NCBI GenBank assembly: GCA_008632985.1
Contig: QPGO01000042.1
Location: forward strand, 1-64,000
Length of the DNA: 64,000 bases
Direction of reading: 5' to 3'
Source: Psammoneis japonica
Lineage: Eukaryota
Both the position numbers and the translations under genes were made by a program. Under the pieces are notes generated by a model. It saw nothing but the letters and a program-made list of their open reading frames with translations, made no database searches and had not been told where the DNA came from. Of the stretch, positions 18,947-52,331 are shown piece after piece; position 1 is the stretch's first letter; each line of letters begins with the position of its first letter.

Positions 18947-19157
18947 TGTGTTTCCATGCTGAACCAGAGTGACACTTGTCAATCATTGAAATTTCCATGT
19001 CTGCTCAATGTTTCTGCCGATTTTCATTGTGCATGGATGTTGACTCTGTTTCTTGACAGTTGTCAAGTCACAAACAATTAATTTTTTTCTTGTTTCAAGT
19101 CACCAGTGTTGCTTGTTGTGACTGCATTTCTAAACTTGTTAAGTTTGTGTGCATTTT
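18308..19157. repeat. 425-bp tandem duplication spanning the pseudogene/transposon junction
   Basis: gttgacgctgcattgccctcaagtcc occurs at 18317 and 18742. Confidence 0.92.
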
Positions 19158-19399
19158 CCCTTCTCCTTCCATTTGCAAGCTGTTTCCCTTCTGTTTTGCT
19201 CTGTTTCTGCCAAATCTGTCCTTTTTTCCCCACTGCACACACCACAAGCTGTCCCCTGACCTAAAATCTGCCAACACGGCAATGGCACACCCCTGTTGCA
19301 ATCCACTTTGTCCTGGTTAGATGTCTGACAACAACAAAAATGACCAGTGTGCTCTCTGCTGACATTTCCAAAGGTGTCTCCAGTGTTCTTCTTTCTTCC

Positions 19400-21560
19400 A
19401 GCATTTGGGCCTTGACAATGCATCCTCCTCTCCCAACCACTCCCTGAGTGACAATGGTGCCTCCAGCTCTTTTGATGCATCAGAGCCTCTCAACATTCCC
19501 TCAATTCAAGCACTGGGATTCATGTCCCTGTCTCTTCATGATGGTGATCCATTGTGCCTTTGCCTGGATGCCAGTGATCAAGAGTTTCAACCATCCACCC
19601 ACAATGATCTTTCCTCCGATGAATTGCCAGGGGGGGGGGGGGGTTCTTTAACAACAAAGGGGTCAATTCTCATCATGCACCACAGTGCAGAAGAACTTGG
19701 TGTTGGCTCTCTTGTTGCTCAAGACCCATCCAATGATGACATCTGCTGCAACAATGTCCTTTTCCCAGAGGAGGAGTTCAATGTTCTCTCAGCACAATGT
19801 TCTCTGTGTCATCCTCTTCTCTCCCCAACAAGGACAAAGACAATGATGGTTTGCACTGCAGATGGAAGAAGCTCAGCTGTTGCAACTCCATGCATTTGTG
19901 AAGCCAATGCTGCCAAGAAGCTTTGCCATGTGGAGGAAGAGTTGGCTGTGACAATGAAGAAGCAACATCTCTCCCATGGTTTGCACAAGGCTTTTTTTCT
20001 TGGGCTGGACATGCCTGTGGACTGTGAGTGCAAGTCTCCCTCCTGCTCTGCCACCTTGTGATGTGTGAAAGCCAAGCATGCCAATTGTGTGGGCCCAGAG
20101 CCCATTTGCTCCACAGTGCATGTGGGACCCAAGTTCCCCCCAATGCGTGTGCACCATTTTTCCTTTCTGCATCATGTGAGAAGGGTGCTCCGTGATCCCC
20201 AGGTTGTCCAGTCAGTGGTTGCACCATGAGAAGCACTGGCCCAAAACAAACAAGCACATTTGTGGCTCTCTCAACACTGGAGACTGGTGGAAGCAAGCAG
20301 AGCATGATCTCAAATGTTCCCTTGATGAACTGGGCAATGGCTGCCCCTCTGGGTCACACTTTGTTTGCCCAGTTGTGCTGTTTGACAATTCCACCTTTTG
20401 TGTCAACACAGGTCATGTGCAAGCAAACCAGTTCTTGCAACATTCAGAGAGCGCTTTTCTTGGTCTGGACTTTCTTGTGCACATCCAAGCTCCACAGCTT
20501 TCTTCACTTCCTTTTTTACATTCATCATTGCGGCAATGCCAACATTTTTAGGGTGGATTTTGTGAAGCTCTTCTCAAGATGCTTTTGAAACAAACTGCTA
20601 AAAACGCTGGTCATCAGCAAGATGTGCCACACCTTGATGTGTTGAATCACCACTGCAAGGACCTCATGGCAAGGGAATCAGAGAAGCACTTGCTGGAGGC
20701 AGGTTGGCTGCATGCACAAGAGGATGAGGCTCCTGCACCTCAATCATCAAATTGTGGATGCACAGACCCTGCCGTCGCTGGATTCAAACTGTGTGAATCT
20801 GCAATGATGGCTGCTCAGGCTGCAAACGTGGATGACAGCAACACCACATTGCCTGTAAAATGCAGAGACAAGCAGCTGCAGACACTGTCACATCCATTTG
20901 CTCCAGGCCATCATGGCAATGAGTGGTTTGCATCCTTGCTGGATCATGCAGAACATTGCAAAGCCTTTCCATTGATGTTGTGAACTTTCGCTTTGGATGT
21001 GATGCTCCAGGCCAAGCCAATGATGAACATGACATTCTAAGATGCCACCCAAACTTTCACCCCCATCCTTGGGAACAAAGGAGTTGGCATGACTGGGCAA
21101 TGGTGAACTGGGATGAGAACAAAACAAGCCATTTGGTCAACATGACATTCTAAGATGCCACCCAAACTTTCACTCCCCTGTCCTTGGGAACAAAGGAGCA
21201 GGCATGACTGGGCAATGGTGAACTGGGATGAGAACAAAACAAGCCATTTGGTCACAGCTCATGTGTTGTTGCAGGCAACCTTGAAAAATCAAACGATGCA
21301 ACACAAATCCACAGTTTGTGCAATCCAGTCACTTCAGAGCTTTGCACCAACCAAAGATTCACTTCTGACCTTTTTCTTCTGTGATGAAACAGAGTTGGGA
21401 ATCAGAGTTGTTGATGCTTCTGAGATTGTGTTGTCTGCCACCTTTGTTCTTCCATCAATGAGGTTGCCACAAGACCCCAGTCCAGTGCCCAGCAAGAAAT
21501 GTCCCAAAAGTTTGTCAACCAAACACAACAGACTTGTTCATCTGAGCAGCCAATGATGTC
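19400..21560 (+). pseudogene. Plavaka-like transposase remnant
   Basis: Motifs LNTGDWWKQAE, FVCPVVLFDNSTFC and CHPNF...WHDWAMVNWD resemble Plavaka transposases. The sequence is fragmented and the boundaries are approximate. Confidence 0.6.
21026..21254. repeat. ~113-bp tandem duplication
   Basis: aacatgacattctaagatgccacccaaactttcac occurs at 21026 and 21139. Confidence 0.9.
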
Positions 21561-24500
21561 AAATGGAGTGGGATCCTGGAACAGCATGCTGCAGCAATGT
21601 GCGACTGTCTGTGGTTAACTCGTGTGAGTTCTTTGGCAAACATGTGCTGGCAGAGATTGCAGCCGGGGGCCAACTCACTGTGGATTCCATGGGCTCCATT
21701 GCTGGCAAATTCTCAACTGTTTTCATCCTGTTTTCTTCCTGAAGGAACTGCCAAGCCATTCAAAAGCAGCCAATCAACAAGCAATGAATGAGATGCTTGG
21801 TCTCTTGGGAAAGCCTCTGTAGATCAGTTCTTTTTGCTGGCAACTTTCTTTTGTGTTCCACCATCATGCATGACACTCACCCATTGAGGATGGTGAAGGG
21901 ACCACATTCTTGATGGTGCAACTCTCCATTCTTTTTTTTAACACAGCATCATTGCCATTGTGTGCAGTGCACCATCCTTTGGAATTTTTGAACAGCTGGG
22001 CATTGAAGCACCAAAAACATGTCATGACGGCACGGTGAGTGAGGAAATCACCCCACTCACCATGCCATTCCACAGCACAGCACTTGCATTGTTGAAAGTT
22101 CTGCACATGACAGTGGCAATTCATGCAGCTGCATTCATGTGGAACAAGGGTGTCAAGAATCCTTTCTTGCATCGTTCCAAAATGTGTGTGGTGGCAAATG
22201 ATGTTTTTTCAGACAGACCCATGCAGCACTGGTCCTCTGGCAGTTTCCTCCAAACATGCATCAGTTGTGCAAGAGTGCAGTCCTCTTCATTTGGATTTAG
22301 TTAGAAACCTTGTGCCACACCATCAACTTTCACATGTGTTGCAGACAATGCAGTGGCTTGTGACAACAACACACATGTTTGTGTCAATGAGTTCTCCTGT
22401 TTGCATCAACGAATGTTGCCATTGAGTGTGTCATTGTTTGTTGCAGAGGATTGACTGGCTGGAATAAAAACATCCAAAAATCTTTCTGCAAGGTTGCTGT
22501 GCTCTTGCTGGCATCTTGTTGAGATCAAATGAATGTGTGGAGCAGTTGCTGCATTGCTGCTGCTCTCTTGTCATTGTCTCGTTGAGAATGTGACAACAAA
22601 AGTTTCACTGTCCATTGAGAATGAATGATTGACAACAGAAAAACCAAATCCACAGCTCAAACAGCCAGCACACCACCTCAACCAATGCTCCAGAGTCAAG
22701 TCAGGCCAGTGCAGCAAGTGCTGCTGTTGCATCTTCACTCCTTCATCCACACAACAGCAGCAGAATGACCATGGATAAAACAAACTTGGACAAGTCTCCT
22801 GAGTTGGCTGTCTTTTTGGATGACAATCTTGACATGCTCAGCCTGGATGGTGCTGATTTGTCAAAGGATTCATTGATGCCGTCTCCATGCAAAAGAAATC
22901 ATGAGTGTTGGAGGACATTGTTTGCCTCACCAGGTGATGCTCATCTGTCAACAGATGCCATCCTGTCCCCCCCCCCCCAAGTGTTGGTCATCAAGCAAGG
23001 AACCTCCAGCAACCAAGTGGATGGCTGTGTCAAGCAGATCCCCTCCGAGGGGAAAACATCCACACAAGAGTGGCCGTTGCCCCTTTTCACCAATGCTGCT
23101 GCACTGTGCAATCATCCAAAAACAGTAGAGCACTGTGCCAAAACTCTGTTTTTGGAGGACAACTGCATGTTTTTCATTCAAAGCAACCACAAGCAGGAGC
23201 TGGACAACACAAAGTTGGACAAGACGTTTGAAGTGACACACCGTTGGTGTCATCTCCAGTGCTTCTGGTGCTGCCACAGTCTTTTTGCAATCATGATGAA
23301 ATCAGCTGTTTGGACTTGGATGACTCCTCCTTGCAGGATGCATTGGATGGGCTGTTTCAGCCAACCAAGAAAAGTGCAGCTGCAATGGATTGAAAGGAGC
23401 GGTCTGCAAAAAGGAGGAAGGCCACCAACCACCAAGGTGCAAAGGAAATGCCAAGTTCATTTTGGCAACCAGAACAATGCAAGGTTGAGTGGCCCCATTG
23501 TGCACACTCCCAGAAAAGCAGACATGGGTGGGCTTGGCTCTGTCAAGCTCATCCAAAAGCATTTGGAATGTGAGGAGGACAAGGAGATGGAAAAGAGCCT
23601 GCCAGGTGCATTGTTGAGAGCTCAGACAAGGCAGTGCCAAACACATTCTGGAAGGCTTGGTTTGTTCACAAAGAGTTGATGGAGTGGCACAAGAGGTGGT
23701 GGGCAACCACCAGCAGATGGCAAAAGAGCCACCCAATGGAGATGAAATGTCATGCTCCATTGAGGATGACAACCTGCACACCACTCTCCTCACCATTGGA
23801 AGTGGCTGTGGTGGTGGGGTTGCTGGCATTCACATTGACATGCAGGGTGCATCTGTGGGATGAAGGGGATTGCCAGACTTCCATTGCAACCTCACCGACA
23901 ATGCAAACATTGCCTTCCTTGCATGTGTTCCAGTCAGAAGAGGTGTGTTGCAACCCATCTTGGTTTTGCAATGGGCAAAAACCATGACCAATTTCTGTGC
24001 AGAATCATTTTGTCATGGAGCAGCTCATGTGGGGACTTGCCTCACTCATTGAACAACTTGTTTGTCCGTGCAAGTGAGTTGAACAAATTGCTCAGGCCCA
24101 AGCCAGAGTGGATTGGCAATTGCAGCAAGAATGGAAAATGTGTTTTCCTTGCTTGGCACACCAAGCAAAACTTGCCAATGGTGCATGCGATAGATGAGGT
24201 GCACCAAAAAAAAAAACATGGAGCCTCATGTCCACTCATGATGAAGATTGGCAACAGACTGAATCAAATTCAAAAGAACAGGAATGAATGGTGTGACACA
24301 AGCAGCATGAGCTCTGAGGAGGATTGGATCCATCTGTGTGAGAAGTTGGGCAGGATGGAACCAGCTCATGACTGTGGTGAGGAATCCAAAATTTGGCAAC
24401 TTCAGGAAAGGCAATCATTGCAATGACAGTGCATGTTGTGAAGTGCAGCTGCAGACAACAGACAAGGTCACTGCAGTTGGAACATTGCAAGTGGACATGG

Positions 24501-24834
24501 CCAAAATGCATCAAACTCCAGTGGATCCATGAGCCTCATTGAACATGTCATCGTTGTCTTCCACAGAATCCTCTGGCTCCTCTGGCTCCATTGCATCCAG
24601 TTGCAACTTGTTGTCCTGAACAGAGGGTGGGAAATCAACTTGATCAACCAGGGCCAGGTTGCTGTTGCCTGTTCCCTCATTGCATGACAAAAAATCAAGA
24701 GTTGGTGCAATCAGAGTGTCCATCGTCAGAGCAGCTGAACCTGCATTTGCGGCAACAGCTGGCTGACTCAGTTCCTCCACCTCCAAATTGTTGTTTGATG
24801 AAACAAAGGCAAGCCCATGCCCTGAGTTGGGGTT

Positions 24835-25314
24835 CCCAGGCTCATTTGGAGCACCATCGAATGCCCTGTTGGAGCTGATGACAATGTTGCAACACCTCAT
24901 GAAATGTGCAATGTCCGGGGTGGCATGCTTCTGCTTGGATTTTGCCAACAGGACATTGGCAATGAAATGACCACCAAAACATGTGCATTCTTGAACAGCA
25001 TCCTGAGCAGCTGGATTGCTGCTTTCAGGTGCAGAGCTGGCACATCATCTCCATGTTTTGCAGGCCATCAATCACCCAGGCTCATTTGGAGCACCATCGA
25101 ATGCCCTGTTGGAGCTGATGACAATGTTGCAACACCTCATGAAATGTGCAATGTCCGGGGTGGCATGCTTCTGCTTGGATTTTGCCAACAGGACATTGGC
25201 AATGAAATGACCACCAAAACATGTGCACTCTTGAACAGCATCCTGAGCAGCTGGATTGCTGCTTTCAGGTGCAGAGCTGGCACATCATCTCCATGTTTTG
25301 CAGGCCATCAATCA
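24835..25314. repeat. 240-bp near-perfect tandem duplication
   Basis: cccaggctcatttggagcaccatcg occurs at 24835 and 25075. I noticed only one mismatch between the copies. Confidence 0.95.
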
Positions 25315-28127
25315 GATCATCCTCATGATGCCAGGACACACTGGTGAGGAGAAACTTGACAGCAATCAACTGGGTGAGTGCCTCCTGCATCATGGCGCTG
25401 TCTCTCCATGCAGTGGGTCACAGTCAGCCCATTGTTCTTGGCACAGCATTTGGTGACTTTGTTGTGGCTCTGCTCATGGTCTTGTTTCATTGGTGTTCAA
25501 GGGTGACAAAGGCAGACAGTGGCAGCAACAACAGGCAAGAACAAATCCACCCACAGAGATGGAACCATTTGTCCAAAGTGGAAGGCAGTGCAGAGACAGG
25601 CTGCATCACAACAATGCACGACAGTGCTGTTTTCCTCATCTGTCAATTCAAAGCCGGCAGGAGGGTTGTTGAACAAGTCAATGGGAGCATGCTGACCTGC
25701 AAAAGACAGATGAACCAAAAAGCTGTGGTGAGTGGTGCAGAGAACATTTGGAGAAAAGAGGGAAAGGAAAATGGCATCAACTTCAATGCTGGGGTTGGAC
25801 CCCTCCATGGCATTTTCAATTTGTTGAATGCACCATCAAGGACACCAGGAAACAAGGTGCTGTTGGCCTTTGGCAGTGGAATGTGATTGATTTGTGTTCA
25901 AAGGTGGGGTGCAAAGGCATTTCATTCTTGATTCATTGAGTTGAGGGCTGAGGGGCCAACCTTTTCCCAAAACTTTTGATGAACTTTGGATTTGTTGAAT
26001 TTGTTGTCAGTTGTCAGACTTGTCCTTGTCATTTTTTGGGTGTTTTGGGAAGACAGCTCCCAAAACATCCTTGCTGCAAAGGGACATTTGGAGGTCACAC
26101 CAGCATTCAGGAGTGAGTGGAAACTCATGGTGTTTTCTGTCTCTTGTTTGGACAGAAAACCAAGAGAGAATGGAAGAGCACAACCTGGCTTCAAGTTGCT
26201 CACTTTCTTTGTAAGGTTGGTCTCCAAAGATGTCATTTCACTGGCATGAAAGGCTGTTTCTGAGTGCACTTTTCCTGCAGCTGCTTGCACATCTTTTGTT
26301 TTGGTTTTGCAAAGGCCATGCATCCACCAGCGAAACAACAGCCACGTTCTGCAATCATCACCAGATGGTTCTTTTGGGTTGATGCCACAGGTGGCGTGGT
26401 GCTCAGAGGCTCTGAGCAGCGTGGGAGTCTTGCAGGAAGGGACTTTTCATTGCGCTCCTTGAGAAAGTTGAGATCTTCTTGTTGATCTGCAGGGAAACAG
26501 TTGTCCGACATGACGCTGTCGGAGGTGTCAGCTTCTTCATTGATGGAGGCTGCAGCAGCTGTGGCAGATCCTGGGTCACTGGCCCATGGAGCAGCTTTGG
26601 ATGAAGAGCCTTGATGTCACCAAGGGCGCTTGTCCTGGAGCCTTGCCTGGGCTGCCTGGGAGGACCTTGACCTTGCGCTTGAGCACCGGGAGCACCACCT
26701 CCACCACAGCCACCTGCGGCACTGGTGCAACTGGTGCTGTTGCAGCCAGCACCTTGTGGGTTCTGCTTCTTCCCTTTTCTTGGCAGCACAACTGGTCAAT
26801 GAACACACCAAATGGCAAAAAATGTTGGTTGAGGTCCCAGAGCCAGAAGTGTGCAAGCACCAGTGTAAAAATTTCAATCTTGACAAGAACACATCAATGT
26901 GATGAAATCAAACTCCTTGTTGAAGCAACACATGATGTGTGACATTGATGACCAAATTGTTGATCAAAGTTGTTTCAAATCACTCAAACCATCAACATGA
27001 CACAAACATGGGTTTTTAAACAAAATTGTGTTGCTGAAAAAGAAACACTGATGGAAATTAACTGACAGACAGGCTCTTCATTTTGCCCAAAACACAAATT
27101 GTTGCTGCTCCACAAGACACAAAAATGCAAACACAAGTTGCATCCAACATTTGACAATGAGAGCAGTGGGGACAGGCAATGGCATTGCAGAGGGAATGGA
27201 GGAAAATGTGGGACACAAGGTGAGAAAGAGAAGACAAGTGGCGAGTGCACGGAGCTCTGGCAAATGATGCAAGTGACCAGCACTTGTGCAAATCTTTGCA
27301 CACAGACATCTGGACTCGCAAAATGGAGGATGGGCAGCAGGGAGGGCACAAAGGTGAGCAGCAACAGAGTGTGAGACAAGCTTGCAAGAAACACAAGACA
27401 TGCAAAAATCTGATCATGCACGAAGTTTTCTCTTGTTGCAGCAGGCAATGCTTTGGCCTGCCAAACATGAGGAATGCAATGCAAGACAGATCATTGCAGG
27501 ACGATGTCATTGCCTGGTGCAGATGATCATGGAGAGAGCAAGCACAGGATCATGGAGAGAGCAAGAGTGGGATCATGGAGAGAGTGAGAGTGGTTGCAAG
27601 GGAGGGCACAAGGACCAAAACAGGACACCCATCATGCAGGGACTGCAAAGGATGACAGGAACTGGTGCAATGCAGATGAAAAACAAGGGTGGGAAGAAAG
27701 AAGCATTTTTTGTGCTCAGCAGTGCAGAAATGACAAAACAGAACATTTGCAAATCAGACAACAAGCAGCACACAGCCAATGCACAATCAGGCTGACAAGA
27801 CAATTGAACTCCATCATTGTCAGAAATGAACAATGTCAGAAAGTGGTTGTGAACACATGGTTAAGACAGAAAAAACATGCAATTGACAAGTTTCGTTGAC
27901 TCTCATTTCCTGCTAAAACCAGTGTTAAAATGAGCAGATGTGAGAAATTGTTGAGAATGTGTGCATGATGAGACTGATTTACATTGCTGTTAAATCCCAC
28001 TTGGAAGGTTGAAGAAAATTGTTAAAATCCCTTTGTTGACAACAAGCACATGTTGAGAATGCAGGATTCTGAACAAGAGTGTGAGAATTCTGAACAAGAG
28101 CCACAACTTTTTCCAGACGTGACTGCA

Positions 28128-28312
28128 CAAAGTTTGGTGTGGCTCATCACTCTCAACTTCCTCAAGACAAAGGTGTGGGTCTTCACTTGTGTTGTCTGCA
28201 CCAACCATGTTCACGACATGCCTGACAAAGGGTGCTGCACTGTTTTTTCTGCCACACTGTGAGAGGCTTTGACCAAAGTTGATGCAGGCAAGAAATGAGC
28301 TGCACTGTTCAT
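28128..28312 (-). pseudogene. Displaced 5' end of the prolyl oligopeptidase pseudogene
   Basis: EDPHLCLEEVESDE resembles the conserved S9A N-terminal motif (E)DPY.WLE. Confidence 0.75.
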
Positions 28313-28349
28313 TGTGGTGCATTTAAGCACACAGTTATGAAGAGCCTGT

Positions 28350-29750
28350 AAAGAATGGAAGGGGACAGCAGAAGGAGGCACGGCAGTGGCTGCAGTGACG
28401 GTGGAGAGCAGAATGGAGCAAAAACGCTGGATGTGTGGTGTTTGGTCAAAGGGACAGGGGATGTGGGAGCAGGAAGGGTCAAAGTAAATCGGAGGGCATG
28501 CACAGAGAGGTGGAGGACCACATTGCAGCCAAGGGCTTGGAGAGCCCATTGAGACAGAGAGGCAGTGCAGTGAGTGTTGCCAAAGCGGTTGGAGGACAGA
28601 CAATGCCATGCCTGGTCAGCCAATGGGAGAAGAGCAGACGGGGAGGACGAGACGCAGAGAAAGGCGGAGCAGGAGGCATCAGAGCATTGAAAGTCAGAAG
28701 GAGAGGACCAAGGAGGCTTGGGTTGAGACCGGATGGAGAGGCGAGTGCAGAGCCAAAGGGAAGGCAGCAAGCAAAGAAACCAAGACTGCCCAGGCGATCA
28801 ACAGTGAAAGGGAGAAGGAAGATGCCGTCATTGTTGAGCAAAGCAACAACAAGGGAACCATCAGCAGTGGAGGTGGAAGGGCCAAGAAACTTCAGTCTCG
28901 CACTCGCATGGTGTGCCTCAGTTAATTTAGGGGAAGAGGGAGCAGCCAGACCAAGGGGAGGGCAAGAAGGAGCTTGAGGTGCATTGACATCAATCGTGAT
29001 GCAGTGATGGTGGGAAGGGGCCAAAAGCGAGGCAGGGAGAGGGGCAGACATGCCAACGTCGGCAGGGCGAAGGAGGGGCCGGGAGGGGGGAGCAAATTGA
29101 GGGGTTCAAGATGGACATCTGCAGAGGAGTGGCAGAGCTGAGCAAGAGGCCCCAAAGTTTGGGCCAGGATGAAAAGGGTGTCACAAAGGCCATTGGAGAG
29201 CTTGGATTTGTGAGCGCCTTGGCAAGAGAAGGCTTGATTGCCACAGGCGTCATGGGTGGCATGGCCGCAAGAGCAGGGTGTGTTGACCAGAGAGGGGGGA
29301 AGAATGGGGAGGCGGAGTTTACATTGGATGGCAATGATGCAGACATCAGAAGAGAGGCAGGAGCTTTGAGAGCGATGGGAGAAGGAGTGGAGAGGTGGAC
29401 TGGCAAGGGGAGACAGCAACGAAGGCAAGGAGACTTGCACATCAGAGGGAGCATCAGCAAGGGTGGAGGCAACAAGCTGTTGTTGATGGTCATGACATGG
29501 CCAATGAGCCAAGCCAGGAAGAGTGGTGCAGATTTGACCAGCGCAGCTGGGGAGGCGGGAGAAAGGGTGGAAGCGGAGTCAAGGATCGGAGCACAGCGGC
29601 GGGTCAAAGCCGTTGCAGCCACCCAGAGTGCTCCCAACTTTCACAGGATGCGTTCCACTTGAATGTTTCACGAACTGCCTTTGCCCACAGCCTTGAAACC
29701 GCAGACGCGCATTGAAAATGAGACACAGCATAATCAGTGCACTCTGCCTC
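28350..29750 (-). mobile_element. 5'-truncated non-LTR retrotransposon remnant with a zinc knuckle and restriction-like endonuclease (CRE-like)
   Basis: Fragments include PCSCG...G(H)AFSC, RPADVG, ITIDV and LLPFTVDRLGSLG. The sequence is frameshifted and the boundaries are approximate. Confidence 0.65.
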
Positions 29751-30940: not shown

Positions 30941-31280
30941 GAGAACCCGGACGTTGAGAAAGCTTACTTCCGCAAGATAGACCTCTACTCTAGACTCTAG
31001 AGTAGTAGCTACTACTAGCTAGCTAGAGTAGCTACTCTAGAGTAGAGAGTACTTCTAGCTAGCTCTCTAGAGAGTAGTAGTAGCTACCATAGAGCCTACT
31101 CTAGCTAGTAGTAGTAGAGCTCTATGGTAGCTCTACTCTACATATACCGTAGTAGAGCCCCCTCTCTAGCTATTAGAGTGGGTACCGTACTGCAGCTCAG
31201 CTGGAAGTAGCTGCTAGAGAGTGACTGTGTGCAAGAGCTTTTCTGAAAATAGTGCCACAGGTCGGAATAGAGTTCTCGAT

Positions 31281-32426
31281 TCATCTGTATGTTGAACATT
31301 CTGGCGCACAGCATGGATTGATACATCCTCGATCTTTCCCATTTTGAAAGTAGTTCTCCAATAACCCTTCACGTTCTGGCGAGAGCTCGTTAGGAAGTGT
31401 CCCACCTCTGTCGAAACCTTCAGCGATTTCGTAGAGAGCGTCATCGAGACTGGACATCAGAGGATCCCAATCAGACTTTGAGTGTTGACCTGTATTTTGT
31501 TTCGCCGCATTTTTCTTTTTTATCGTTGCAGGCAGGGTTAAATTGAATTGATCTGCAAATTTGTTCAAGGACGCGTCAAATTTTTCCAGGAATAGAATAG
31601 CCGAGAAACGTCGAAGCCTGCCCAGCGTGTATGAAAAGTCCTCTCTCGAGAGCTGAAATTTTGGTATTTGTGAACAACGAAAGCCACATATCATTCGCGT
31701 GTTCCAGTTATCTGGCTGTTTGCTATACCAATCGCGAAAGGTGTCGTCTCTTTTAGATCCTTTACCTATTGTTCTCATTCCTGCTGTTCGGGGTAGGGTT
31801 CTCATGACATGGCCATAATGAGAAAAGTACCGATCACGAGAGTTTCTTAGAGTCACCGTATAAAAGTAGCTTTCTGTGTCCATCGCTTCATACATCTCTT
31901 GCTCACTTGCAACAAAGTCAAATTTCGTAATATTTGCAAACGATCTTTGTGCTTCGATTGTATCATCACCTCCGCAACAGCGTTGGTCCCGCTGGACGTT
32001 GCAGTTCTTTTTAAAATTAGCACTTATCCCAGCATAGTTCATCAAAACACACATTTGTGTTCCACCCGACTTGTGAATATGTAGATAATAAATAACCTTT
32101 TCTGTAGCCCTTGTTCTCTTCAATCCACGTGAATCCAACCGGGGTGGTCTTCTCCACGCCCGACCGGCACGACGCATGGAAATCTCCCGAGGCTCGTTGT
32201 CTTGCAGAGAGAATCTAGGAGGCCGACGAGCGTTCTCCCGAGGCTCGTTGTCTTGCAGAAAGAATCTAGGAGGCTTGCTTATCGGCTTGTTTATTGGCTT
32301 GACTATTGCCGTGTCCTCCCTGTCCTGTAGAAAGTCAACGATCGCCATCAACTCCTGAGTTTGTTGTGTGATAGAATACAATCCAAGAGCCGGAAGAATC
32401 AGCAAGCACACAGTAAAACTCCGCAT
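31281..32426 (-). CDS. Type II membrane sulfotransferase-like protein
   Basis: It has an N-terminal anchor, a 5'-PSB motif (YLHIHKSGGT) and a 3'-PB-like motif (LRNSRDRYFS). A 51-bp stem duplication lies at 32183/32234. Confidence 0.75.
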   Translation of the reverse strand: MRSFTVCLLILPALGLYSITQQTQELMAIVDFLQDREDTAIVKPINKPISKPPRFFLQDNEPRENARRPPRFSLQDNEPREISMRRAGRAWRRPPRLDSRGLKRTRATEKVIYYLHIHKSGGTQMCVLMNYAGISANFKKNCNVQRDQRCCGGDDTIEAQRSFANITKFDFVASEQEMYEAMDTESYFYTVTLRNSRDRYFSHYGHVMRTLPRTAGMRTIGKGSKRDDTFRDWYSKQPDNWNTRMICGFRCSQIPKFQLSREDFSYTLGRLRRFSAILFLEKFDASLNKFADQFNLTLPATIKKKNAAKQNTGQHSKSDWDPLMSSLDDALYEIAEGFDRGGTLPNELSPEREGLLENYFQNGKDRGCINPCCAPECSTYR

Positions 32427-43066: not shown

Positions 43067-43243
43067 CACGAACTGCGGAAGAAGAGCGGGATAGAGCGAC
43101 TGGTGCATATTGCATATGTTAGAAACAGTGGCAAGGGGGAAAATGCCGCTGGTAGGCTGCTATTTATAACTGTCGTTGTTTCAAGGAGGTACTCTTTCTT
43201 TCCACCAAATAGTTAGAGCTATTCTGTAGTAGAGACGTCGGCT
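43067..43243. repeat. ~177-bp dispersed direct repeat, copy 1
   Basis: Aligns without gaps to 49266-49442 (cacgaactgcggaagaagagcggg...gtagtagagacgtYggct). Confidence 0.95.
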
Positions 43244-43616
43244 GGTATCTAGAAATCTGGAGGAAAGAAACGTTCTTCACTATTTTCAATCGTCAGCTCT
43301 TTATTTTATGCTCCCGGCCTTTCTACTCTCTACTCTAGCTAGTAGCTACCGGCACTCACAAATAGCGAGAGCGATCGATTCGTCCGGCCGGCAGTTCGTT
43401 CTTTCGAGAGAGATTCCTTGTCGCCAAAGAAGCAAAACAAATCTGGCTTTTCGCATTTGTGGTTGTGTGCCCTTGCTTTTCCATTTGAACTTAAATGATT
43501 CGATCCATTTCGTACCCAACTCTTGCGGACAACCGCAACGACCACCCGCAGTCAGTGAAAGACAAGCAACACGCCGGACTATGAGATTCCAACCTAATAC
43601 TTCAAATTCATTTCTG

Positions 43617-45717
43617 CTAATGAGCCACTTTTTGAAACAAGTGTCGACGTTGATTTTCAAAGTCTTCCTTATTGGACGAGATCATGACGGCGATAAAGGC
43701 TACTCCCGCCCAATAATGACGCGACGTGTCCTTTTGCAGGGCATGTTGATCTTGCTTGTCCTTGGGAATGAGTCCAAGTAACAAGAGAGGGACAGGTCCA
43801 ACGAGACCACACAAGAGCGACCACACACCGTCAAAGTTTCCAGACGCAACGGTTTCCGACGACACGTCCCACACTCCGGTAAGAGCAGTGGATATATCAA
43901 AGGCAAGTGAGCCAGCCAAGTTGCTCCACGTTGTCAACATTGCGTACGTGGTTCCTTCACTTCCCGCTGGACACAGTCCCAAATACATGATGCACATGGG
44001 AAGAAACTGGACAGCAATCACAAACTCCACCAGAATGTCGTCACCCATGTTGAACCAAATATCCGGAATCCCGATACGCCGATTCCACCTAAAGACTAAA
44101 ATGATTTGTCCCAGCGCAATGATAGTGGCCAGTGTCGTGCACCAAAAGTACACAATTCTCCAATTGGACGCAAAAAAGAATTTCTTGTACGCCATGATTC
44201 CAAGCCATGCCATGATGCTCCCACCAATGCTCATGATACCAATTTTCCACGCTTCAAAGTCCAGTCCCTCGACCAAAAAATTCATCCATGCGGCATTGGT
44301 GAGTTGGAGCGCATTGTAAACGTACACAAAAGTCATGGGCTGCCAAACGGATCGTAGTTGGACCGTGTGAAACAAATCTTGGCATTGTACGACAAAACTT
44401 TTTGGGGCGCAGCCAGTTTCCAATTCCAAGAGATAGGGAACGACGGGAAGCAAAAAGAGCAAGGCAAAGACGCCATTGATGAAAAAGACGACATTGATGG
44501 GCAAGTACCAATCCCACGTTTCCTTATTGTACACCAATGCCCCAATTGTAGCTCCAATGGTGGAACCAAAGAAACGAATAATATAACCCGTACTGGTACT
44601 TTGCATGGTGCCTCTTGATTCGTCCGGCTCGTACCGCGATCGTTCCACAATGAGCGCGTCCGTCATGACATCGGCCAGCATGTATCCAGCCGTTTGTGTA
44701 AACACAAATAGAGTACACCATTGAATGTTGGGTTGTGGTGTCATGGCCAAAATGAGATTGCTACCAATGTACACACACCAACCAATCATGAAATAGGGTT
44801 TTCGTCGCAATCCCGAAATGGGAAGACAGTCCGATAAGAACCCGTACAAGACCTTGAAGCACCACGGAACCGCCACTGTGAATAAAAAGTAAAATAAGTG
44901 GGAATGTCAGAATGTTTCAGCATAATTCTCGCATCAAATTAACACTCCAACCACAATCTCTGTAACGACAATCATACTACACACTCACTGACGGTAAAGA
45001 GCACATTGACTTGTGCGGCCGACGCATCCAAGTCTTGAATAAAGTACACAATCAGTGGCGTTCTCAAAAGCTGCAGTGCCACACCTATACAAAAGTATGA
45101 TATGGGTATTGCCAAACTGGGAAGCGAATAAAAGCAGTACATCCATTCCGGTGTTTCGCCCGATCTTTGAGACTCTGTTGTTGTTCTGGATTGAGCGGCG
45201 TGTAAATGTCTAGCCCAAACCAATTGTGCAAGTAGACCGACGACTACGCAATGTATCCGTCTTCGAGTGGACCATACCATCGTTTCGTAAAACGTCGTCC
45301 ATCGTATGCATGACAAATGTAGTAGGGACCCTCATAGTAGGGTGCACGTTGCCCGTGACAATCAAACAATTGTGGTGTTTCGTCTGTAATACCGTCAAAA
45401 CTGGTAGATGTTACTGACACGACCGACGCGGTATCATTGTGTGTCAGAGGAGGAGGAGAGTACGGGCGTTGTCGTTGTTGTTGTTGTCTTGGTGACATGA
45501 AGCCAATTCCAGTTGCCGTGCCGTCGTTGGGAAACGCATGAAACGCGTTGCTCGGCTCGTCATGTTCGTCTTCCTGACTCGTCATGGAGGAAACACCCAA
45601 TCGAATGGCTAATCGTGTCGCTTCAGCATTAGCAGCGGCGAGTTCATCCTGAGGTTGTTGAGAAGTCGTTCGACGGGGACCTGATTCGCCAGGTTGCAAA
45701 GCATCATGGTTCTTCAT
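43617..45717 (-). pseudogene. Folate-biopterin transporter (BT1/MFS), probably pseudogenised
   Basis: BT1 motifs are PWCFKVLYGFLSDCLPISGLRRKPY, ADVMTDALIVE and CPAGSEGTTYAML. Intron 44876-44988. There is an in-frame TAG at 45244-45246, a 1-nt frameshift near 45160 and an abrupt C-terminus. Confidence 0.75.
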
Positions 45718-46020
45718 TATTTACTACTCCTGCCGCCTTCAAACTCAATTTCACTGTTTGCGGCTTCTGCTTGGAGTTGCGTCTGGTGCTCAAAGCTTCT
45801 GCCAACTGCATGGGCTCGTTTCTCCGAAGGTGCGGAAAAGGACACCGAACTGCAACACGGCAAGGGAACAAACCAGACCTCCCAGTTGGGAGTGGGGAAC
45901 TAACAAACAACAAATGCGCTGATTCTTATCATCTTGAAGAGAAGACTCGGTCGCCGAAAAGTATTTCATCTAAAATCTAATGACGTGAACATCACATCAC
46001 CATGACATCTTCAACCATAT

Positions 46021-46184
46021 CTACGTGGGCATAATACCAGCTCTACACATTTCTACATGAAATCCCGCAGCATGCGTGGGCATAATACCAACTCTACACA
46101 TTTCTACATGAAATCCCGTAGCATACGTGGGCATAATACCAGATCTACACATTTCTACATGAAATCCCGTTGCCTACGTGGGCA
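46021..46184. repeat. 51-bp tandem repeat (3.2 copies) carrying TACGTGGGC
   Basis: cgtgggca occurs at 46024, 46075, 46126 and 46177. Confidence 0.95.
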
Positions 46185-49100
46185 CGGTATATTTTCAACG
46201 GGGCATCATCATGGTACAAAGATCCCGTGAAAATTGTACGTGGGCAGAGGATTGGGCGGGTGTACCGGTTCAACGCAGACCTACAAGGGCAGCGCTTTTG
46301 GTGCGGCACTAATTCCACGTAGTCTACGTGGGCGGAACACGCCAGCCGGCCATTTCTCGCGGGCGCGACGATCATTGCTCACCCAAAATCTCAAACCGCC
46401 GCACCGCCTGCCTCTTCGATCGCTGCAAGCACCATGTCATCTGCCTCCCAAACCACCGCCAACGCCAGCAGGAAGCGTTCATCGGATGCTGGCTTGCATC
46501 ACGGCAGCAGCATCGCTGGCGCTGCCATTCGTCGTCGCACCGGATTGTCTCCGGGCCGTTTCGCCCATGTCGGATCGTCTCCTGGAAGAAACGGCCATGC
46601 TGCGGACGGAACAAACAGGTGTCAGACACCAGTTTCCCAGCGTTTTTACAGCAAAGCAATCATGTGACAATTTCGCACAATTTCAAAAAAAGATGAGGTT
46701 GAACCGAAAAATGCGACAGATGCTCACAAAAGTGCGACGCAACACGAGAAGCGACAATGGCGTCCATGTGGGGATGAAAACAACATCCACACTAATTTGA
46801 GGCATGCATGCATGACAATGCAAACGCAACAAATTTAACTGATGCACCATTTGGCTCACTCGTGTCCGTCCAAGTGCTCCAATCGACCATTCGAGATGAC
46901 GCCATTGTCATCAATGTTCCGCACAGTTGCTGCGCGTAATTCACGTAGAAAATTGCAAAAACAGCTGGTGACAACGACGCCCTGAATTCAACTGCAACCT
47001 GCATGCACGGTCAATGTGGGCACATGTCTGCAATTGTCGCCTGCCAAACGACACGTCTGGCGCATTAGTTGCGTGCAAATTGATCAATGGCGTCACCGGT
47101 GGCACGCCATTGTCAGCATCGAATGCCGTGCAAAAAGCACGGGGAGGACAGAAATCGACTCTTCTGTCGCATTTGTCTGTCTGTCACCCGTTTGTCTCGT
47201 AGAATCTACGTGAAAGTTCCCACACTTTACGATCTGTCCATGCTGACATTGTCATCTGACAACTGTTCATTCCTCTGACAACCGTTTGTTCTGCGCGTGG
47301 CGTGCCATCTCGTCTCCTGGAAGATCATCATCTTCTGTGTTTTCGAGCCGCATGGCCGGCTTTGCTGGCCTGGACAGCACAAATGAAGACAACAGTCTCT
47401 TCGACGCCTCTGTGCCGCTTGCAAGCCTCGAGTTCCAGACTTCGGGGCAGTCCAACGTTTCATCTGCCCTCGGAAGCCTGATTGACGGGAGCGTTGTGGA
47501 CGACGCACGCGACGATCAAGTCGAGCAAGACGACGGTGAGCAAGACGGTGAGCAAGTCGATGAGCAACAGTCCGTGTTGTCAGAAGTGGTCGCAGATCTC
47601 GCCACGGAGCTTGTCACCAAGTTCTTGCCGAATCGAAAGAGCACGTTCGCTCTGGTGGGCAGCGACTGCTTCGAAAAGGAGCTGTGCCGCATTGCGGATT
47701 TCAACGCCGCTCCAGTTGCAGAGGACCATGTCAAGAGGATCTCTTCATCACCTCGAAACAGCCTGATCGCCCGAATGGGCCTGCCAAACATGCAGACCGA
47801 CGTTGTTGTTTTGACTGCGAATCAGGCGAAGTGGGAGAAGAATGCCAAAACCTGCAAGGAGAAGATTGCGTCCTGCATCGAGAAAGAGCACCTCCTTGCT
47901 CCTTTGCTCGAGTCATCCCATGAAGCCTTGAAGGAAGCAAACGAAAGCCATCAGGCTCTTCTCTTGAAGCAAAAGGCACGTGTCTCCGCCCGCACGCAGT
48001 GTGAGGAGCATTTCAAGCGCAACAGCCGCCGGGCGAAGCTACGAATTGTTTTCAAATCTTTGAATTCAATTTTTATGGATGATTGCAGACCAGCTCACAG
48101 ACTTTTTCTTTGCTTGACTCCAGTGGTCCGAAGACGTTGAGATGAATTTTGTCTGCAGCAAGCTGTCTTTGTTTTCCTACGAAGATTGCATGGGCATGGG
48201 TCGGGACGAGGCGTGCGATGTGGTTCGCATTTGTCAGGTCTTCCGTTACGAGAAAACCAAGTTTTTCCGTGCCCTTTGGAGATTTCCCTTGGAAGGCTTC
48301 ACTCTAGAGTCGTGGATGGACACGCATGGCAACCAACCAGCCCTCCAGGCAGGGAAGGGCAATTTTTCCTCACTCTTCGTAAAAGAGCGAACGGCCCACT
48401 TTCTAGGATTCCCCACTCCCAAACATGTCAGGGCTTGCCGCGAGAAGGCAGCCAACGCATCCACCACTGCATCGACCAGCAACGAGGCCGCTGTGGCCAC
48501 CACCGGGTCCGCCACTGCTTCGACCAGCAACGCAGCCACCAACGTTTCTATCGAAGCCCAGCTCAATGACATGGATCAAGGGGGGCTTGATGCTCTCATC
48601 GCCAAAGCCATTGCAAAGAGGCGTGCGATGGACCAACCCTCCACAAGCGACCCATGAGCTCCACCTGTCTCCCTCTGGATGTTTGAGCTCCTCCGACAAC
48701 ACTGCCAAGCAACGCTGGCACGCAAGTGACGTAGAAGACAAGAACCAGTCTCTCACTCAGGCTGGGTCCACTCCACAGCTCCAGCAGAAGACACCATCTC
48801 ATTGCACAGTCCTCACAAAGATCGTATTGCTGTATGCTTGTTTCTACAACAACTCCAAAATTATTTATTTCTCCCGACTACAGCAAAATTCAATCCATCA
48901 TCACCGTCGTCAGCACCGAGTTATGTGGAATTGTCGCACCATCCGTCCCTTTGACACACCACGTGAGTTCCAGTCGGGTGGCAATCCAAACACTGTCCCC
49001 GAGTTCCGTGCCATCAGTGTTCCAGCAAGTGCACGGGCGATCCTTGACCAAAATGCGGATGGTCCGTCCAATGCGTCTCAGTCTTTCCGTCACCAAGACT

Positions 49101-49265
49101 TGGTGTGTTTTGGAAAGCGTCGGGCAGCCGCATTTGCTTGTTAAAAAGACGGAGGTTGGAAAACAAACAGCCTTTAGTTGCGATTCAAAAGCCTTGTGAG
49201 TCAACGTGATGCATCCCGCTACCGTGGATGCGGCGGCTCCCGATGCAGCAGCGACGACCACCCAG
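46021..49265. mobile_element. Unclassified repeat or transposon-like segment with a Tyr-free ORF (47352-48657, probably spliced)
   Basis: It has terminal tandem repeats and strong TpA depletion, and contains no recognisable host gene. I did not identify a transposase motif. Confidence 0.4.
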
Positions 49266-49442
49266 CACGAACTGCGGAAGAAGAGCGGGACAGAGCGACT
49301 GCTGCACATTGCACATGCCAGAAACGGTGGCAAGGGGGGAAATGCTGTTGACAGGCTGCCATTTATAACTGTCATTGTTTCAAGAAGGTACGCTTTCTTT
49401 CCACCAAATAGCGAGAGCTGTTCTGTAGTAGAGACGTTGGCT
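49266..49442. repeat. ~177-bp dispersed direct repeat, copy 2 (TpA-mutated)
   Basis: Aligns to 43067-43243. Confidence 0.95.
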
Positions 49443-50040
49443 ACCGGTGCAGCACTCTGGCAGGTGATTTTGGATGAGAAGTTCCTGCCAGAGCATGTCA
49501 GTTGTGGCGGCCACGAACTGACGAACGAACAGATGGCCCTCCACTCTCTACTCTAGAGCTCTAGCAGCTAACACCGGTAGAGCAGATAGATGCCGGTAGA
49601 AGTAGGTAGATAGAAGTAGATACGGTAGATAGTCTCTCTCTACTCTCTCTCTCTAGAGTAGCTACATAGAGAGAGAGTAGATAGATAGATGGGTGAGATG
49701 ATTACCGTCTGACATGCGTCAGATAGATCGATGCTTTTGGTGTTATGTTGTTTGGTGCAATGTTTGCTGACACGTGGAAGTAATACCGTATGGTACGCAG
49801 AGCGAGGAGCGAGCTCGCTTCTCGCTTCCCCTTCTCGCATCTCACGTGATGCGACATGTTGCCACCATGAACTGCGGGACGTCTATCATACGAATACTTT
49901 GAACTTGTGCTGTACAAGTACAACACAGGACGTGAACCGCTGATTTCGACTCTACTTGACCGTGCTACCAGCACTTGTAGCGAAAAGCTAAACTCAACAC
50001 GAATCATCTGTCGAGACTTCTGAGCGCAGAACCCAGCAAA

Positions 50041-52331
50041 ATGAGCGGAATCAAATCGTTGTTCTCCATGTCATGCGCCGCGACCGTGATTATGTGCTTG
50101 TACGTGGCTATGGCGTTTTTGAACCTCTATAAGCTCATGTATCCGTTGTCCTTGATGGATACTTCCTCCCAGTTCTCATCCAGTGTTGGGACTTTATGGG
50201 ACGAAGCGTCGAGCATGCGCATGAAAGTATACGTGAGCTCGCAAGAGAAGTTTCGGCTAGAGTTTCTGCGGTATGAATTCGATGCACCACAAAACGAGGA
50301 GGGCGAGATTCCGTCCAACTCTGACGTTGCTTTGCTGTGGAAGGAAGATATTCGGGAACCGTCACTTGCAAAGTCCTTCTTGTTGTGTCAGAGCGATGTG
50401 GACGACTCTGCGTGCAAGAACGATGCTTCTTTCAAGTATGCTTCGGATTGGTTGGGTGACGTGGAACGAAGTCATGGACAATACGGAGCTGGTGGTATTT
50501 CGGCAGTACTCTCGTCCGCAGGGGAAGGCATCGAGTCAACAAGTGTGCTTTTGAGCTTGTATCTCGCACAACGAAGCAGGTTGGACGACTCTTTGCTGCA
50601 ATCGGCCACAAACCAAAGGTTGACGAGAATGAAGACCAGGCAGATTCCAGTTCGTCCAGCCCGACAATTGTGAGAATATCGCCATCCTCGCCTCTCTGGT
50701 CTGCCTTGCACAGAAACGAAACGATTCATGTTCACGTTGTGTTGACCAGAAATGACCAAAGCGACGCCTTTGAAAGTTATGAAGAGGCAGCTAAGTCTCT
50801 GATGAGGTCGCAAAGGAGCCACTCACTTCTGTTGGGGCATGTCAATCTCATCAAGTACGACATTCCACACCATATTAGTCAACCCGGTCGGTTGCTCTAT
50901 CGTGATGTCCTTTATCTTGTTAAGCGCTTCGTTGTGCGCGCTACTGATGACTCAACTCCTCCTCCTTGGGACATGGCGTACGCAAAGCCAGAAGACTACA
51001 ACGCATATCGGCAGGCTCTTACTATGAAAGCAGAGGGATCTGGGTATCCTTACTGGAAACCGCAAGTGTCAGTCAAATATGTTAATGAAGATGTGCGCTA
51101 TCCGGCGGAGCTGGCCCATATATCTGGAATGGACTTGGTTCAGTTGAGTGGTAAGACCCCTTTACATCCCACGGGCTATGCAATGCTGCCAGGTCTACAT
51201 GTTGACGAGATGGGACTGACGAGTGAGAAGTACATCCCTCTGAACAGTACTATTACTAGTTTGCCGCTTAGAGTTTCCTTTGATAGGAATGATGCGGTGG
51301 ACCACAGCCGACACACAACTGCTACAGCTGGTGGTATGAGCACGGCTCGATGGCGACTGCTTACCCACTTATCAAAGTCGCTCGAATCTCAGAGAAGTCT
51401 AGGATTTGAGCAATCAGATATCGATGACGTAAGACGCCTGATTGCCGACACCAACGTGACTCTGCTAACGATTACGATGCTTGCCAGTGCGCTTCATCTC
51501 CTATTTGAATTTCTAACGTTCAAAAACGAAGTTTCGTTTTGGAGCCGAAACAAGGACTTGACTGGTCTAAGCGTTCGTGCTTTGTTTCTCGACATGTTGA
51601 GCCAAGTGATCATTTTGTTGTATCTCGTCGAGCAGGACAGCTCGTTACTCATGACGATCCCAACTGCTGCTGGTTGCATGATTGCATTGTGGAAATGCCA
51701 CAAGGCCGCGGGTTTCAAATTTGTCCGTTTTGATGATACCGAGACAAATCGAGATGTTTCTTGGTGGAACGTTTTGCCTCGAATGATTGGGTATGAACTT
51801 CGCGCAACTCGTCTTGAGATTGCTGTTGAGAAAAAGGATAAACAGAAGAAGGGCAACTCCGTCGGTACAAAAACGACTGATCTCAAAGCGCTGACCATTG
51901 AAACGGATAAACTTGCCACACGGACCCTTGGGGCTGCATTGATTCCCGTTGTCCTTGTATACACGTTGTATTCATTCATCTGGGAAGAGCATACGGGATG
52001 GTACTCCTGGCTCATCACATCGGCATCATCGGCGGTCTATGCGCTTGGCTTCGCGCTAATGACGCCTCAGTTATTTCTCAACCACAAGTTGAAATCCGTG
52101 AGCCATCTCCCTTGGCGGGTGCTGATCTACAAGTTTCTCAACACTTTCATTGATGACTTGTTTGCATTCATAATTCGCATGCCGACAATGGCCAGGATAA
52201 GTTGCTTTCGAGATGACGTCGTCTTCATAATGTGTCTTTACCAAAGATGGCTTTATCCTGTTGATACGTCAAGACCAGTTGAAGGGGGTGACGGGGCTGC
52301 GTCTGTGGACGAAGAGAAAAAGAAGAAGTGA
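50041..52331 (+). CDS. CLPTM1-family membrane protein, with an apparent frameshift near 50560
   Basis: LHLLFEFLTFKNEVSFW, MTPQLFLNHKLKSVSHLPW, NTFIDDLFAFII, FRDDVVF and YQRWLYPVD. Confidence 0.88.

Follow-up and report, generated by a model that had tools for sequence, protein, structure and literature searches.

A domain of about 3 kb in the genome of Psammoneis japonica is nearly devoid of the dinucleotide TA (TpA) while retaining CG (CpG), and it covers a gene of an unnamed protein family that is interrupted by a repeat. The domain lies in the window, that is, the whole stretch of 64,000 nucleotides analysed here (contig QPGO01000042.1 of assembly GCA_008632985.1, positions 1 to 64,000 of the forward strand). 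Called island 2, it spans 46326-49360 and contains 28 TA against about 121 expected, with CG at the background level. In a second, large island (15950-29750) both TA and CG have been erased. Profiles per kb and per 200 bp confine the depletion to discrete regions of an otherwise ordinary window.

The TA-poor domain and the gene it covers

Between 46340 and 49330, the ratio of observed to expected counts (obs/exp) is 0.17 for TA, 0.96 for CG, 1.38 for CA and 1.36 for TG, compared with 0.58-0.64, 0.95-1.00, 1.12-1.17 and 1.09-1.16 in three background blocks. A preliminary description of this DNA had pointed out an 810-bp run without any TA (47230-48039) in which CG is abundant. Both observations hold: the sequence and the list of gaps between TA place the flanking TA at 47228 and 48040, and the string that had been quoted as an example, cgacgcacgcgacgatc, is found at 47501-47517. 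At the background rate of 0.040 TA per bp, such a run has a probability of ~9e-15, and the longest TA-free run outside both islands of the 64-kb window is 241 bp. The GC content is 53.3% in the domain versus 48.6% in the background (+4.6 points), which corresponds to ~140 extra G+C, and ~93 TA are missing.

The products of this loss appear to be unevenly distributed between the strands. The core of the domain contains 97.5 CA, 74 TG and 7 TA per kb, and the coding strands of 12 other genes contain 65.5, 81 and 35, respectively. Relative to these strands, TA falls by 28 per kb and CA rises by 32, with TG unchanged. The TA deficit is thus balanced by the CA excess, so that nearly all of the loss takes the form of TA>CA when the + strand is read. 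This bias agrees with the changes in a 177-bp repeat (6 CA : 1 TG) and with the replacement of tyrosine (Tyr) by histidine (His, 3) or cysteine (Cys, 1), both described below, and is suggestive of strand-biased loss. The CA/TG ratio along the domain is patchy, ranging from 0.8 to 2.6 per 250 bp.

The borders of the domain lie slightly outside those given in the preliminary description (46340-49330). The left edge is at ~46326, after the last dense TA, and the right edge falls between 49360 and 49364. The domain therefore extends from just upstream of the start codon, across the inserted repeat, to ~700 bp beyond the stop codon. The left border (46020-46335, + strand) is dense in TA (21 TA in 46001-46250) and is built from a 51-bp unit repeated three times in tandem and from additional copies of a TACGTGGGC-type motif. 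This motif has an ACGTG core and occurs in six copies in all, directly upstream of the left edge; these tandem repeats may constitute a promoter or a boundary element. Inside the domain, a patch at 48825-48922, located 170-265 bp past the stop codon, has a normal to high TA content (7 TA in 98 bp). It may be a 3′-end signal kept by selection or a later insertion.

The gene is encoded on the + strand. The main part (47324-48092) contains no Tyr codon, retains six residues that are invariant in the family and matches the family profile with E 9e-55. It is followed by a frame-shifting stretch of 31 nt (48093-48123), where relatives read a proline and a tryptophan without a gap, and which could be an insertion that shifts the frame or else a very short intron. 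The C-terminal part (48124-48657; profile E 2e-12) contains the only two Tyr codons of the gene, each of which reads TAC followed by G. A putative first part, with its ATG at 46434 (46434-46618), is in the same frame as the open stretch 47247-48140. Comparison of this part with the N-terminus of the family gave no significant match (BLASTP E 0.28-8), nor did the family profile match it; we infer that it belongs to the gene from the shared frame and a 15-nt repeat.

An exhaustive protein search with the frame 47247-48137 retrieved 10 relatives (best E 4e-19, 32-35% identity), all of them unnamed proteins from metagenomes or sequencing runs, and a word-based search with the same frame returned no match at near lengths. 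When a profile of the 10 relatives was run against all 1553 frames of at least 25 amino acids in the window, it matched only 47247-48137 (E 9e-55) and 48118-48654 (E 2e-12). With the two longest relatives as tblastn queries, the alignment follows frame +3 up to 48092 and then frame +1 from 48118/48145, which indicates one gene with a 31-nt frame break. A Pfam search of the window frames and of 11 family members gave no family for this gene; a match of one member to SOAR (E 0.0046) was taken as chance. The best score in a protein atlas was 0.88, under the lead level of 0.9. Searches of metagenome_contigs with a narrower family alignment and protein P0002 gave no confirmed locus, and a search of viral_contigs with the family alignment found no relative.

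The gene is poor in Tyr. A 284-amino-acid open reading frame (ORF) in this region had been described as lacking Tyr, and the enclosing stop-to-stop frame (47247-48140, 297 codons) indeed has none. In comparison, Tyr makes up 2.3% of residues in 12 other proteins of the window and 0.6-3.1% in 18 relatives.

The coding region is disrupted by an inserted element of 720 bp (46590-47309), in addition to the 31-nt frame break. On either side lies an exact 15-nt direct repeat, TCGTCTCCTGGAAGA, at 46575-46589 and 47310-47324 on the + strand; the copies are 735 bp apart, share the same codon phase and look like a target-site duplication. The element has inverted 18-nt ends (46609-46626 and 47274-47291, identical by eye at 16 of 18 positions), as well as a tandem end motif and an inverted pair in its interior. 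Its copy number was estimated from X1, one of two public sequencing runs (X1 and X2); the X1 contigs were built from exact 31-mers, and the run is possibly the assembly's own data. The inner part, 46633-47192, reaches a summed contig depth of 1175-1584 in X1, compared with ~58 for ordinary neighbours, and the flanking 47.4-49.2 kb have a depth of 58, the same as these neighbours. From these features we read the segment as a probable high-copy mobile element inserted into the 5′ coding part of the gene. A GT at 46619, inside the left inverted end, and an AG at 47323, contributed by the duplicated 15-nt target, would allow splicing in frame, so the insert might also function as an intron (46619-47323).

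Direction and sequence context of TA loss

The family alignment offers a first view of the direction in which sites changed. Where the profile of 10 relatives has its eight Tyr, the window reads F, C, H, H, N, Y, H and F. Four of the seven replacements are single transitions of TAY, to CAY or TGY, and the other three need a transversion. The one Tyr retained at a profile position is among the two TAC codons that are followed by G.

A second view comes from a 177-bp repeat present in two copies on the + strand with 88.7% identity. The left copy (43067-43243) lies outside the island in ordinary DNA and contains 14 TA, whereas the right copy (49266-49442) straddles the right edge of island 2. All of the first six TA sites of the comparator (49291-49360) are CA in the island copy. 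Of the remaining eight sites (49364-49429), six are still TA, while TG and GA each occur once. In total, 8 TA have been lost, six as TA>CA and one as TA>TG. The island copy has no TA that is absent from the outside copy, and 17 of the 20 mismatches are transitions. As the first six TA are converted and most of the last eight kept, the edge is sharp to 4 bp (49360-49364), and it falls inside the repeat at a point where there is no feature.

The loss is equally severe in DNA that does not encode the protein. In 46340-47227, which is mostly inserted repeat and non-coding sequence, the TA ratio is 0.16, as low as in the coding part. Other copies of the inserted element in X1 and X2 contigs include some with TA where the window has TG or CA; for instance, 47183 G>A occurs in contigs with about half of the local depth, and a loose contig end at 47222 is a second example. 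Together, the Tyr losses, the repeat pair, the non-coding depletion and the other element copies indicate that TA was lost by substitution in place. This argues against codon use, RNA selection or foreign composition as the cause of TA loss. The preliminary description had proposed that TA erasure is mutational and uncoupled from CpG loss, and that copies which were all equally TA-free would instead imply selection. The proposal is supported by the Tyr positions, the 177-bp repeat and the CG ratio of 0.96. The copies compared differ in TA content, contrary to the condition set for selection: the outside repeat copy keeps 14 TA, the first six of which are CA in the island copy. In addition, relatives have Tyr at positions where the window reads H, C, F or N.

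Whether a TA site is lost depends on its neighbours. With expected counts derived from background densities, the core (46340-48820) has no RTAY (R, purine; Y, pyrimidine) where 28.4 are expected and 5 YTAR where 19.1 are expected. In the large island, the corresponding counts are 0 against 148.6 for RTAY, 26 against 100 for YTAR and 18 against 270 for the mixed classes. Loss thus follows the order RTAY, mixed, YTAR, the last being the slowest. This hierarchy fits a rule, suggested by the sequence, in which a single strand is read and the A of 5′-TAY-3′ (equally the T of 5′-RTA-3′) is the preferred target. The preferred target would then be present on both strands in RTAY and on neither in YTAR, as expected from the complete loss of the former and the slow loss of the latter.

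There is an exception to this rule: a TA site is spared when its Y is the C of a CpG. In the core, YTACG and its complement number 10 versus 5.2 expected, RTACG is absent (6.1 expected) and all other TAC/GTA contribute a single site versus ~46 expected. Of the 28 TA left in 46340-49360, 11 abut a CpG, compared with 11% in the background (P 1e-4). The exemption hints at cross-talk with cytosine methylation.

CpG changes and the large island

Although CpG is undepleted in island 2, it does not appear to be stable there. An X1 contig that spans 47193-51000 has the same TA-free sequence with 10 differences. Thirteen differences separate X1 from the window in the unique sequence of island 2, and 11 of them create or abolish a CpG (5 CG in the window only, 6 in X1 only); for transitions placed at random, 31% of positions would do so (P 9e-5). 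One more of them is the TA at 48040, which is TG in X1. Close by, at 43.4-45.5 kb, the CpG type accounts for 2 of 18 differences (Fisher P 1e-4 versus island 2), and among the differences listed for the same 20-kb X1 contig, none falls in 48511-51000. The predominance of CpG-type differences indicates that CpG is hypermutable in island 2 despite its normal abundance. Run X2 has no cover over 47401-49200, with neighbours at 30-75, and was not used as evidence on expression.

The X1 contigs also diverge from the window at 43340-45479, where they have about twice the depth of their neighbours and differ at 17 places. In seven cases a TA of the window is CA or TG in X1 (P 2e-4), including a TAG stop that reads TGG and a Tyr that reads His in the frame 45244-45720 on the minus strand. 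Junction contigs in X1 join 49401 to 43247 and 43345 to 49543, linking both copies of the 177-bp repeat. The divergent contigs may represent an allele or a paralogue; possibly the segment is present a second time in a partly TA-eroded form. If this is a copy under attack, the TA arm of the process would be at its start there; in island 2 the TA arm would be finished and the CpG arm starting, and in the large island both would be finished.

The large island (15950-29750) shows what the combined loss looks like. Its obs/exp is 0.05 for TA, 0.14 for CG and 1.84/1.77 for CA/TG, and its summed pyrimidine-purine (YR) steps are as in the background. Forty of the 44 remaining TA are part of TAA or TAG when read on the + strand, and retention is highest for TTAA (0.66). 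The CpG sites least retained are TCGA (0.03) and TCGG (0.04). The CA/TG polarity along the island has no clear switch. When TGA is read as tryptophan, all six frames of this island open up just because TA is absent, and hence they are no evidence for a different code. Palindromic matches (30986-31137) lie just to the right of the island, as does the only kb of the window with a TA ratio near 1 (31001-32000, 0.97).

The traces of genes and duplications in the large island are informative on how it formed. Only one of its 109 frames of at least 70 amino acids passes the Pfam threshold, with a match to Peptidase_S9 (E 2.4e-7). This prolyl-oligopeptidase remnant (16321-16779, minus strand) aligns with solved prolyl endopeptidases across the GGSNGG serine motif, with C and H at Tyr positions of these homologues, and its continuation in another frame identifies it as a pseudogene. 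Tandem duplicates occur at 18308-19157, 24835-25314 and 21013-21254. The copies 18308-18730 and 18733-19157 differ in 24 columns, which include four adjacent CA<->TG swaps as well as CG/TG, CA/CG and CA/TA differences. Four swaps never arose in 20000 simulations with 20 random transitions, and the swaps between tandem copies therefore indicate that each copy converted an ancestral TA or CG on its own, in place. The preliminary description had arranged the two islands as an early and a late stage of one process. The CpG differences in island 2 and the CA<->TG swaps lend this series circumstantial support, but they do not extend to the time order or to a single driver of both losses.

The rest of the window is gene-dense, with long uninterrupted frames that encode a myosin head, a CBS-repeat protein, BT1, DUF3172, CLPTM1, an MFS/nodulin-like protein and PurM. 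In the protein atlas, the cluster closest to PurM is mostly Bacillariophyta (score 0.94), a lead that fits a diatom-like genome. In the BT1 gene, an X2 contig skips 113 nt (44876-44988) whose ends are GT..AG on the minus strand, corresponding to an intron; X2, although recorded as ‘DNA?’, therefore behaves like complementary DNA. At 1-2943, three tandem units of 1050 bp (~95% identical) lie inside a 1423-amino-acid CBS-domain frame on the minus strand.

Proposed explanation and comparison with known systems

TA was lost rather than gained, its loss is confined with an edge sharp to 4 bp, it affects coding, inserted and non-coding DNA alike, and it depends on sequence context. The best explanation for these properties, and one that is probably correct in its joint form, combines regional TpA>CpA/TpG mutation, adenine deamination, a silencing trigger and slower CpG decay. 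A chromosomal domain of ~3 kb would have been struck by a region-restricted mutational process acting on DNA, in which A:T>G:C transitions turn TpA into CpA or TpG, nearly to completion in island 2. The most likely chemical route would be deamination of adenine in 5′-TA-3′ on either strand, the product being read as G at the next replication. Deamination would favour A before a pyrimidine and would be blocked where this pyrimidine is the C of a, probably methylated, CpG. The trigger may have been silencing, the repeat insertion having marked the locus. Decay of CpG would be a second, slower process, presumably deamination of methylated C, that has just begun in island 2 and is complete in the large island at 16-29.7 kb.

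Several observations weigh against this explanation. The direction of change rests on few sites, namely eight Tyr positions and 14 TA sites. The F, F and N found at Tyr positions need transversions, which is beyond a pure transition process, and F is also present in 3 of 9 relatives at one of these positions. One site of the 177-bp repeat, CTAT>CCAT, contradicts the flank rule, which thus holds as a preference only. Why TA before CpG is exempt does not follow from a simple single-strand deaminase rule alone. The frame 47247-48140 is still open for 297 codons with six invariant family residues kept, which leaves room for selection on the protein. Neither a viral relative, in the viral contig collection, nor a Pfam family was found for the target. 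X1 may be the source data of the window, making it weak as independent support. Lastly, the CA+TG ratio of island 2 (1.37) is under the cut-off of 1.52 that a preprint on the alga Bigelowiella natans set on that genome (Mettrop et al., 10.64898/2026.01.13.699255).

The alternative that survives best, though an unlikely one, arrives at the same regional TpA>CpA/TpG outcome by another chemistry, as a by-product of chromatin-specific base modification or repair. For example, a TET/JBP-type dioxygenase could oxidise the 5-methyl group of thymine in TpA and of 5-methylcytosine in CpG to formyl bases; formyl-uracil and formyl-cytosine are known to mispair. Error-prone patch repair in methylated DNA is a further example. 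Thymine and 5-methylcytosine are both 5-methylpyrimidines in self-complementary YpR steps, so one enzyme class could explain why the large island lost TA and CG to the same products. The T-hydroxylases of kinetoplastids and dinoflagellates prefer TpA, the loss in island 2 is mostly T>C on the + strand, and the sparing of TA that abut a CpG suggests recognition of duplex DNA that senses the neighbouring CpG, as opposed to a context rule read on one strand. However, the literature found on hydroxymethyluracil concerns dinoflagellates and kinetoplastids, with none found on diatom DNA. Moreover, a joint enzyme has to be reconciled with the intact CpG of island 2, which would need to be unmethylated or only recently methylated.

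Selection against TA, or against UpA in RNA, as something harmful such as a nuclease target or a transposon insertion site is improbable. Suppression of UpA and CpG in cytoplasmic RNA is a known selective pattern. The domain approximates one transcription unit, from ~100 bp before the ATG to some hundred bp past the stop codon, and its long reading frame keeps the invariant residues of the family. Yet the inserted repeat and the non-coding parts are depleted to the same extent, the gene is broken by the insertion and the frame break, and the pseudogene in the large island shows the same loss. Conserved Tyr is replaced at seven of eight profile positions, mostly by the transition neighbours H and C. 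In addition, the edge falls at a featureless point of the 177-bp repeat, and the CpG exemption and the precedence of RTAY over YTAR make no evident sense under selection.

The remaining alternatives carry very little probability. In one of them the direction is reversed, and the comparators gained TA by C>T changes at CpA, as in repeat-induced point mutation (RIP), while the island stayed in an ancestral, TA-poor condition. Viewed by itself, the repeat pair is symmetric: 6 of the 11 CA of the island copy are TA outside, on one strand, as one round of RIP would give. At 43.4-45.5 kb, too, 9 of 11 transitions place A/T in the window and G/C in X1. Against this reading stand the ten relatives from other sources, which have Tyr where the window does not, the prolyl-oligopeptidase remnant, which lost Tyr kept by solved homologues, and the ordinary TA content around the outside copy, which makes the island the outlier. 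Just as remote is an origin as viral or horizontally acquired DNA of intrinsically TA-poor composition. The lack of a Pfam domain, the restriction of the relatives to unnamed metagenome proteins and the GC content 4.6 points over the background would fit such an origin. However, the Tyr content of these relatives is ordinary, the depletion enters the 177-bp repeat, of which the outside copy has a normal TA content, the viral contig collection yielded no relative and we know of no genome with a TA ratio near 0.05-0.17. Least credible is an artefact of sequencing or assembly, for which modified bases that are systematically misread would be an example. Base-calling errors can be dinucleotide-specific at modified sites, as this pattern is, but 80% of the sampled words recur in the X1 contigs, built from exact 31-mers, which cover 47193-51000 with 10 differences, tandem copies in the large island have CA versus TG in identical context, unlike a systematic error, and the protein changes are coherent with the DNA changes.

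A bolder reading, tentative and subject to considerable doubt, is a two-step eraser that would act on marked loci, such as repeat-hit genes and dead genes, in diatom-like algae. A fast DNA editing step that clears all TpA through A:T>G:C changes and reads the state of the neighbouring CpG would be followed by slower, methylation-dependent CpG loss, with the last TA disappearing thereafter. The end state, exemplified by the large island, would have no TA, no CG and twice the normal CA/TG. Island 2 would have completed the first step and be starting the second, and the X1 version of 43.4-45.5 kb would be starting the first.

Such islands have practical consequences. They destroy Tyr codons and TAA/TAG stops and inflate spurious ORFs, thereby misleading gene prediction and composition-based screens for foreign DNA. 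They also provide mechanistic handles in the form of the flank hierarchy, the CpG exemption, the 4-bp-sharp edge and the link to a repeat insertion.

RIP, known from Neurospora and other ascomycetes, changes C>T at CpA, which creates TpA and lowers GC, and it leaks from repeats into adjacent single-copy genes. Like RIP, the process in island 2 is a defence-like, region-restricted burst of transitions at one dinucleotide, often strand-coherent within a patch, and it resembles RIP leakage in reaching from a high-copy insert into its host gene. The chemistry is opposite, however, as TpA is destroyed (0.17) and GC rises by 4.6 points. RIP also acts on duplicated DNA. Here the insert is high-copy (summed depth 1175-1584), and its flanks are at single-copy depth in X1.

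A RIP-like hypermutation of TpCpG has been described in Pucciniomycotina (Horns et al. 2012, PMC3318451). The large island is similar in that C after T and before G is the most mutable (TCGA, TCGG). Island 2, on the other hand, keeps its CpG (0.96); its core has 18 TCGA versus 13.2 expected (1.36), so that preferential loss of TCGA and TCGG is found in the large island only, and the Pucciniomycotina process, as described there, has no TpA arm. Methylation-driven CpG decay is matched by the 11 of 13 X1 differences in island 2 that interchange CpG with TpG or CpA, although CpG is still undepleted there and that process leaves TpA alone. Many diatoms carry DNMT4, which is related to the fungal RIP enzyme RID (Hoguin et al. 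2023, PMC9998398). DNMT4 may be considered a candidate for the CpG arm only. The literature consulted contained no report of TA-free islands in diatoms.

The closest parallel is found in the chlorarachniophyte B. natans, the one organism for which TpA-only hypermutation was first reported, in 2026 (Mettrop et al., 10.64898/2026.01.13.699255). In mutation-accumulation lines, the mutation rate of two silent viral inserts exceeds that of the remaining genome ~1000-fold, and 230 of 231 changes are A>G or T>C, all of those on TpA. The genome contains 124 TpA-poor clusters that are rich in CpA+TpG and in unannotated genes, and an ADAT2-like DNA adenine deaminase is the proposed cause. The main text of the preprint makes no mention of CpG, trinucleotide or flanking context, or diatoms (10.64898/2026.01.13.699255).

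Island 2 shares with B. natans, as portrayed in that preprint, the TpA>CpA/TpG transitions, their restriction to discrete regions and the resulting rise in GC content. It differs in being near saturation (obs/exp 0.17, and 0 over 810 bp) compared with 0.45 in the viral region of B. natans, and in its setting, a diatom-like genome in which the target is a repeat-interrupted gene without a relative in the viral contig collection. The signature is also read from sequence composition and comparison here and from de novo mutations there. The large island (TA 0.05; CA/TG 1.84/1.77) passes both cut-offs of the preprint; island 2, with TA at 0.17 and CA/TG at 1.38/1.36, lies under the second of them, which was set on the B. 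natans genome. In contrast to the account of B. natans, TA that abut a CpG are exempt here, there is a hierarchy of flanks and CpG is hypermutable within the same domain. CpG-type differences are in excess in both directions, unlike in TpA-restricted hypermutation without an excess of G:C>A:T, so a second process acts in island 2. Island 2 thus looks like a saturated case of TpA-only hypermutation in a diatom-like genome, with a CpG-linked exemption that the preprint does not describe in B. natans. If this is true, its presence in a distant lineage would mean that the process is widespread among algae and able to reach completion.

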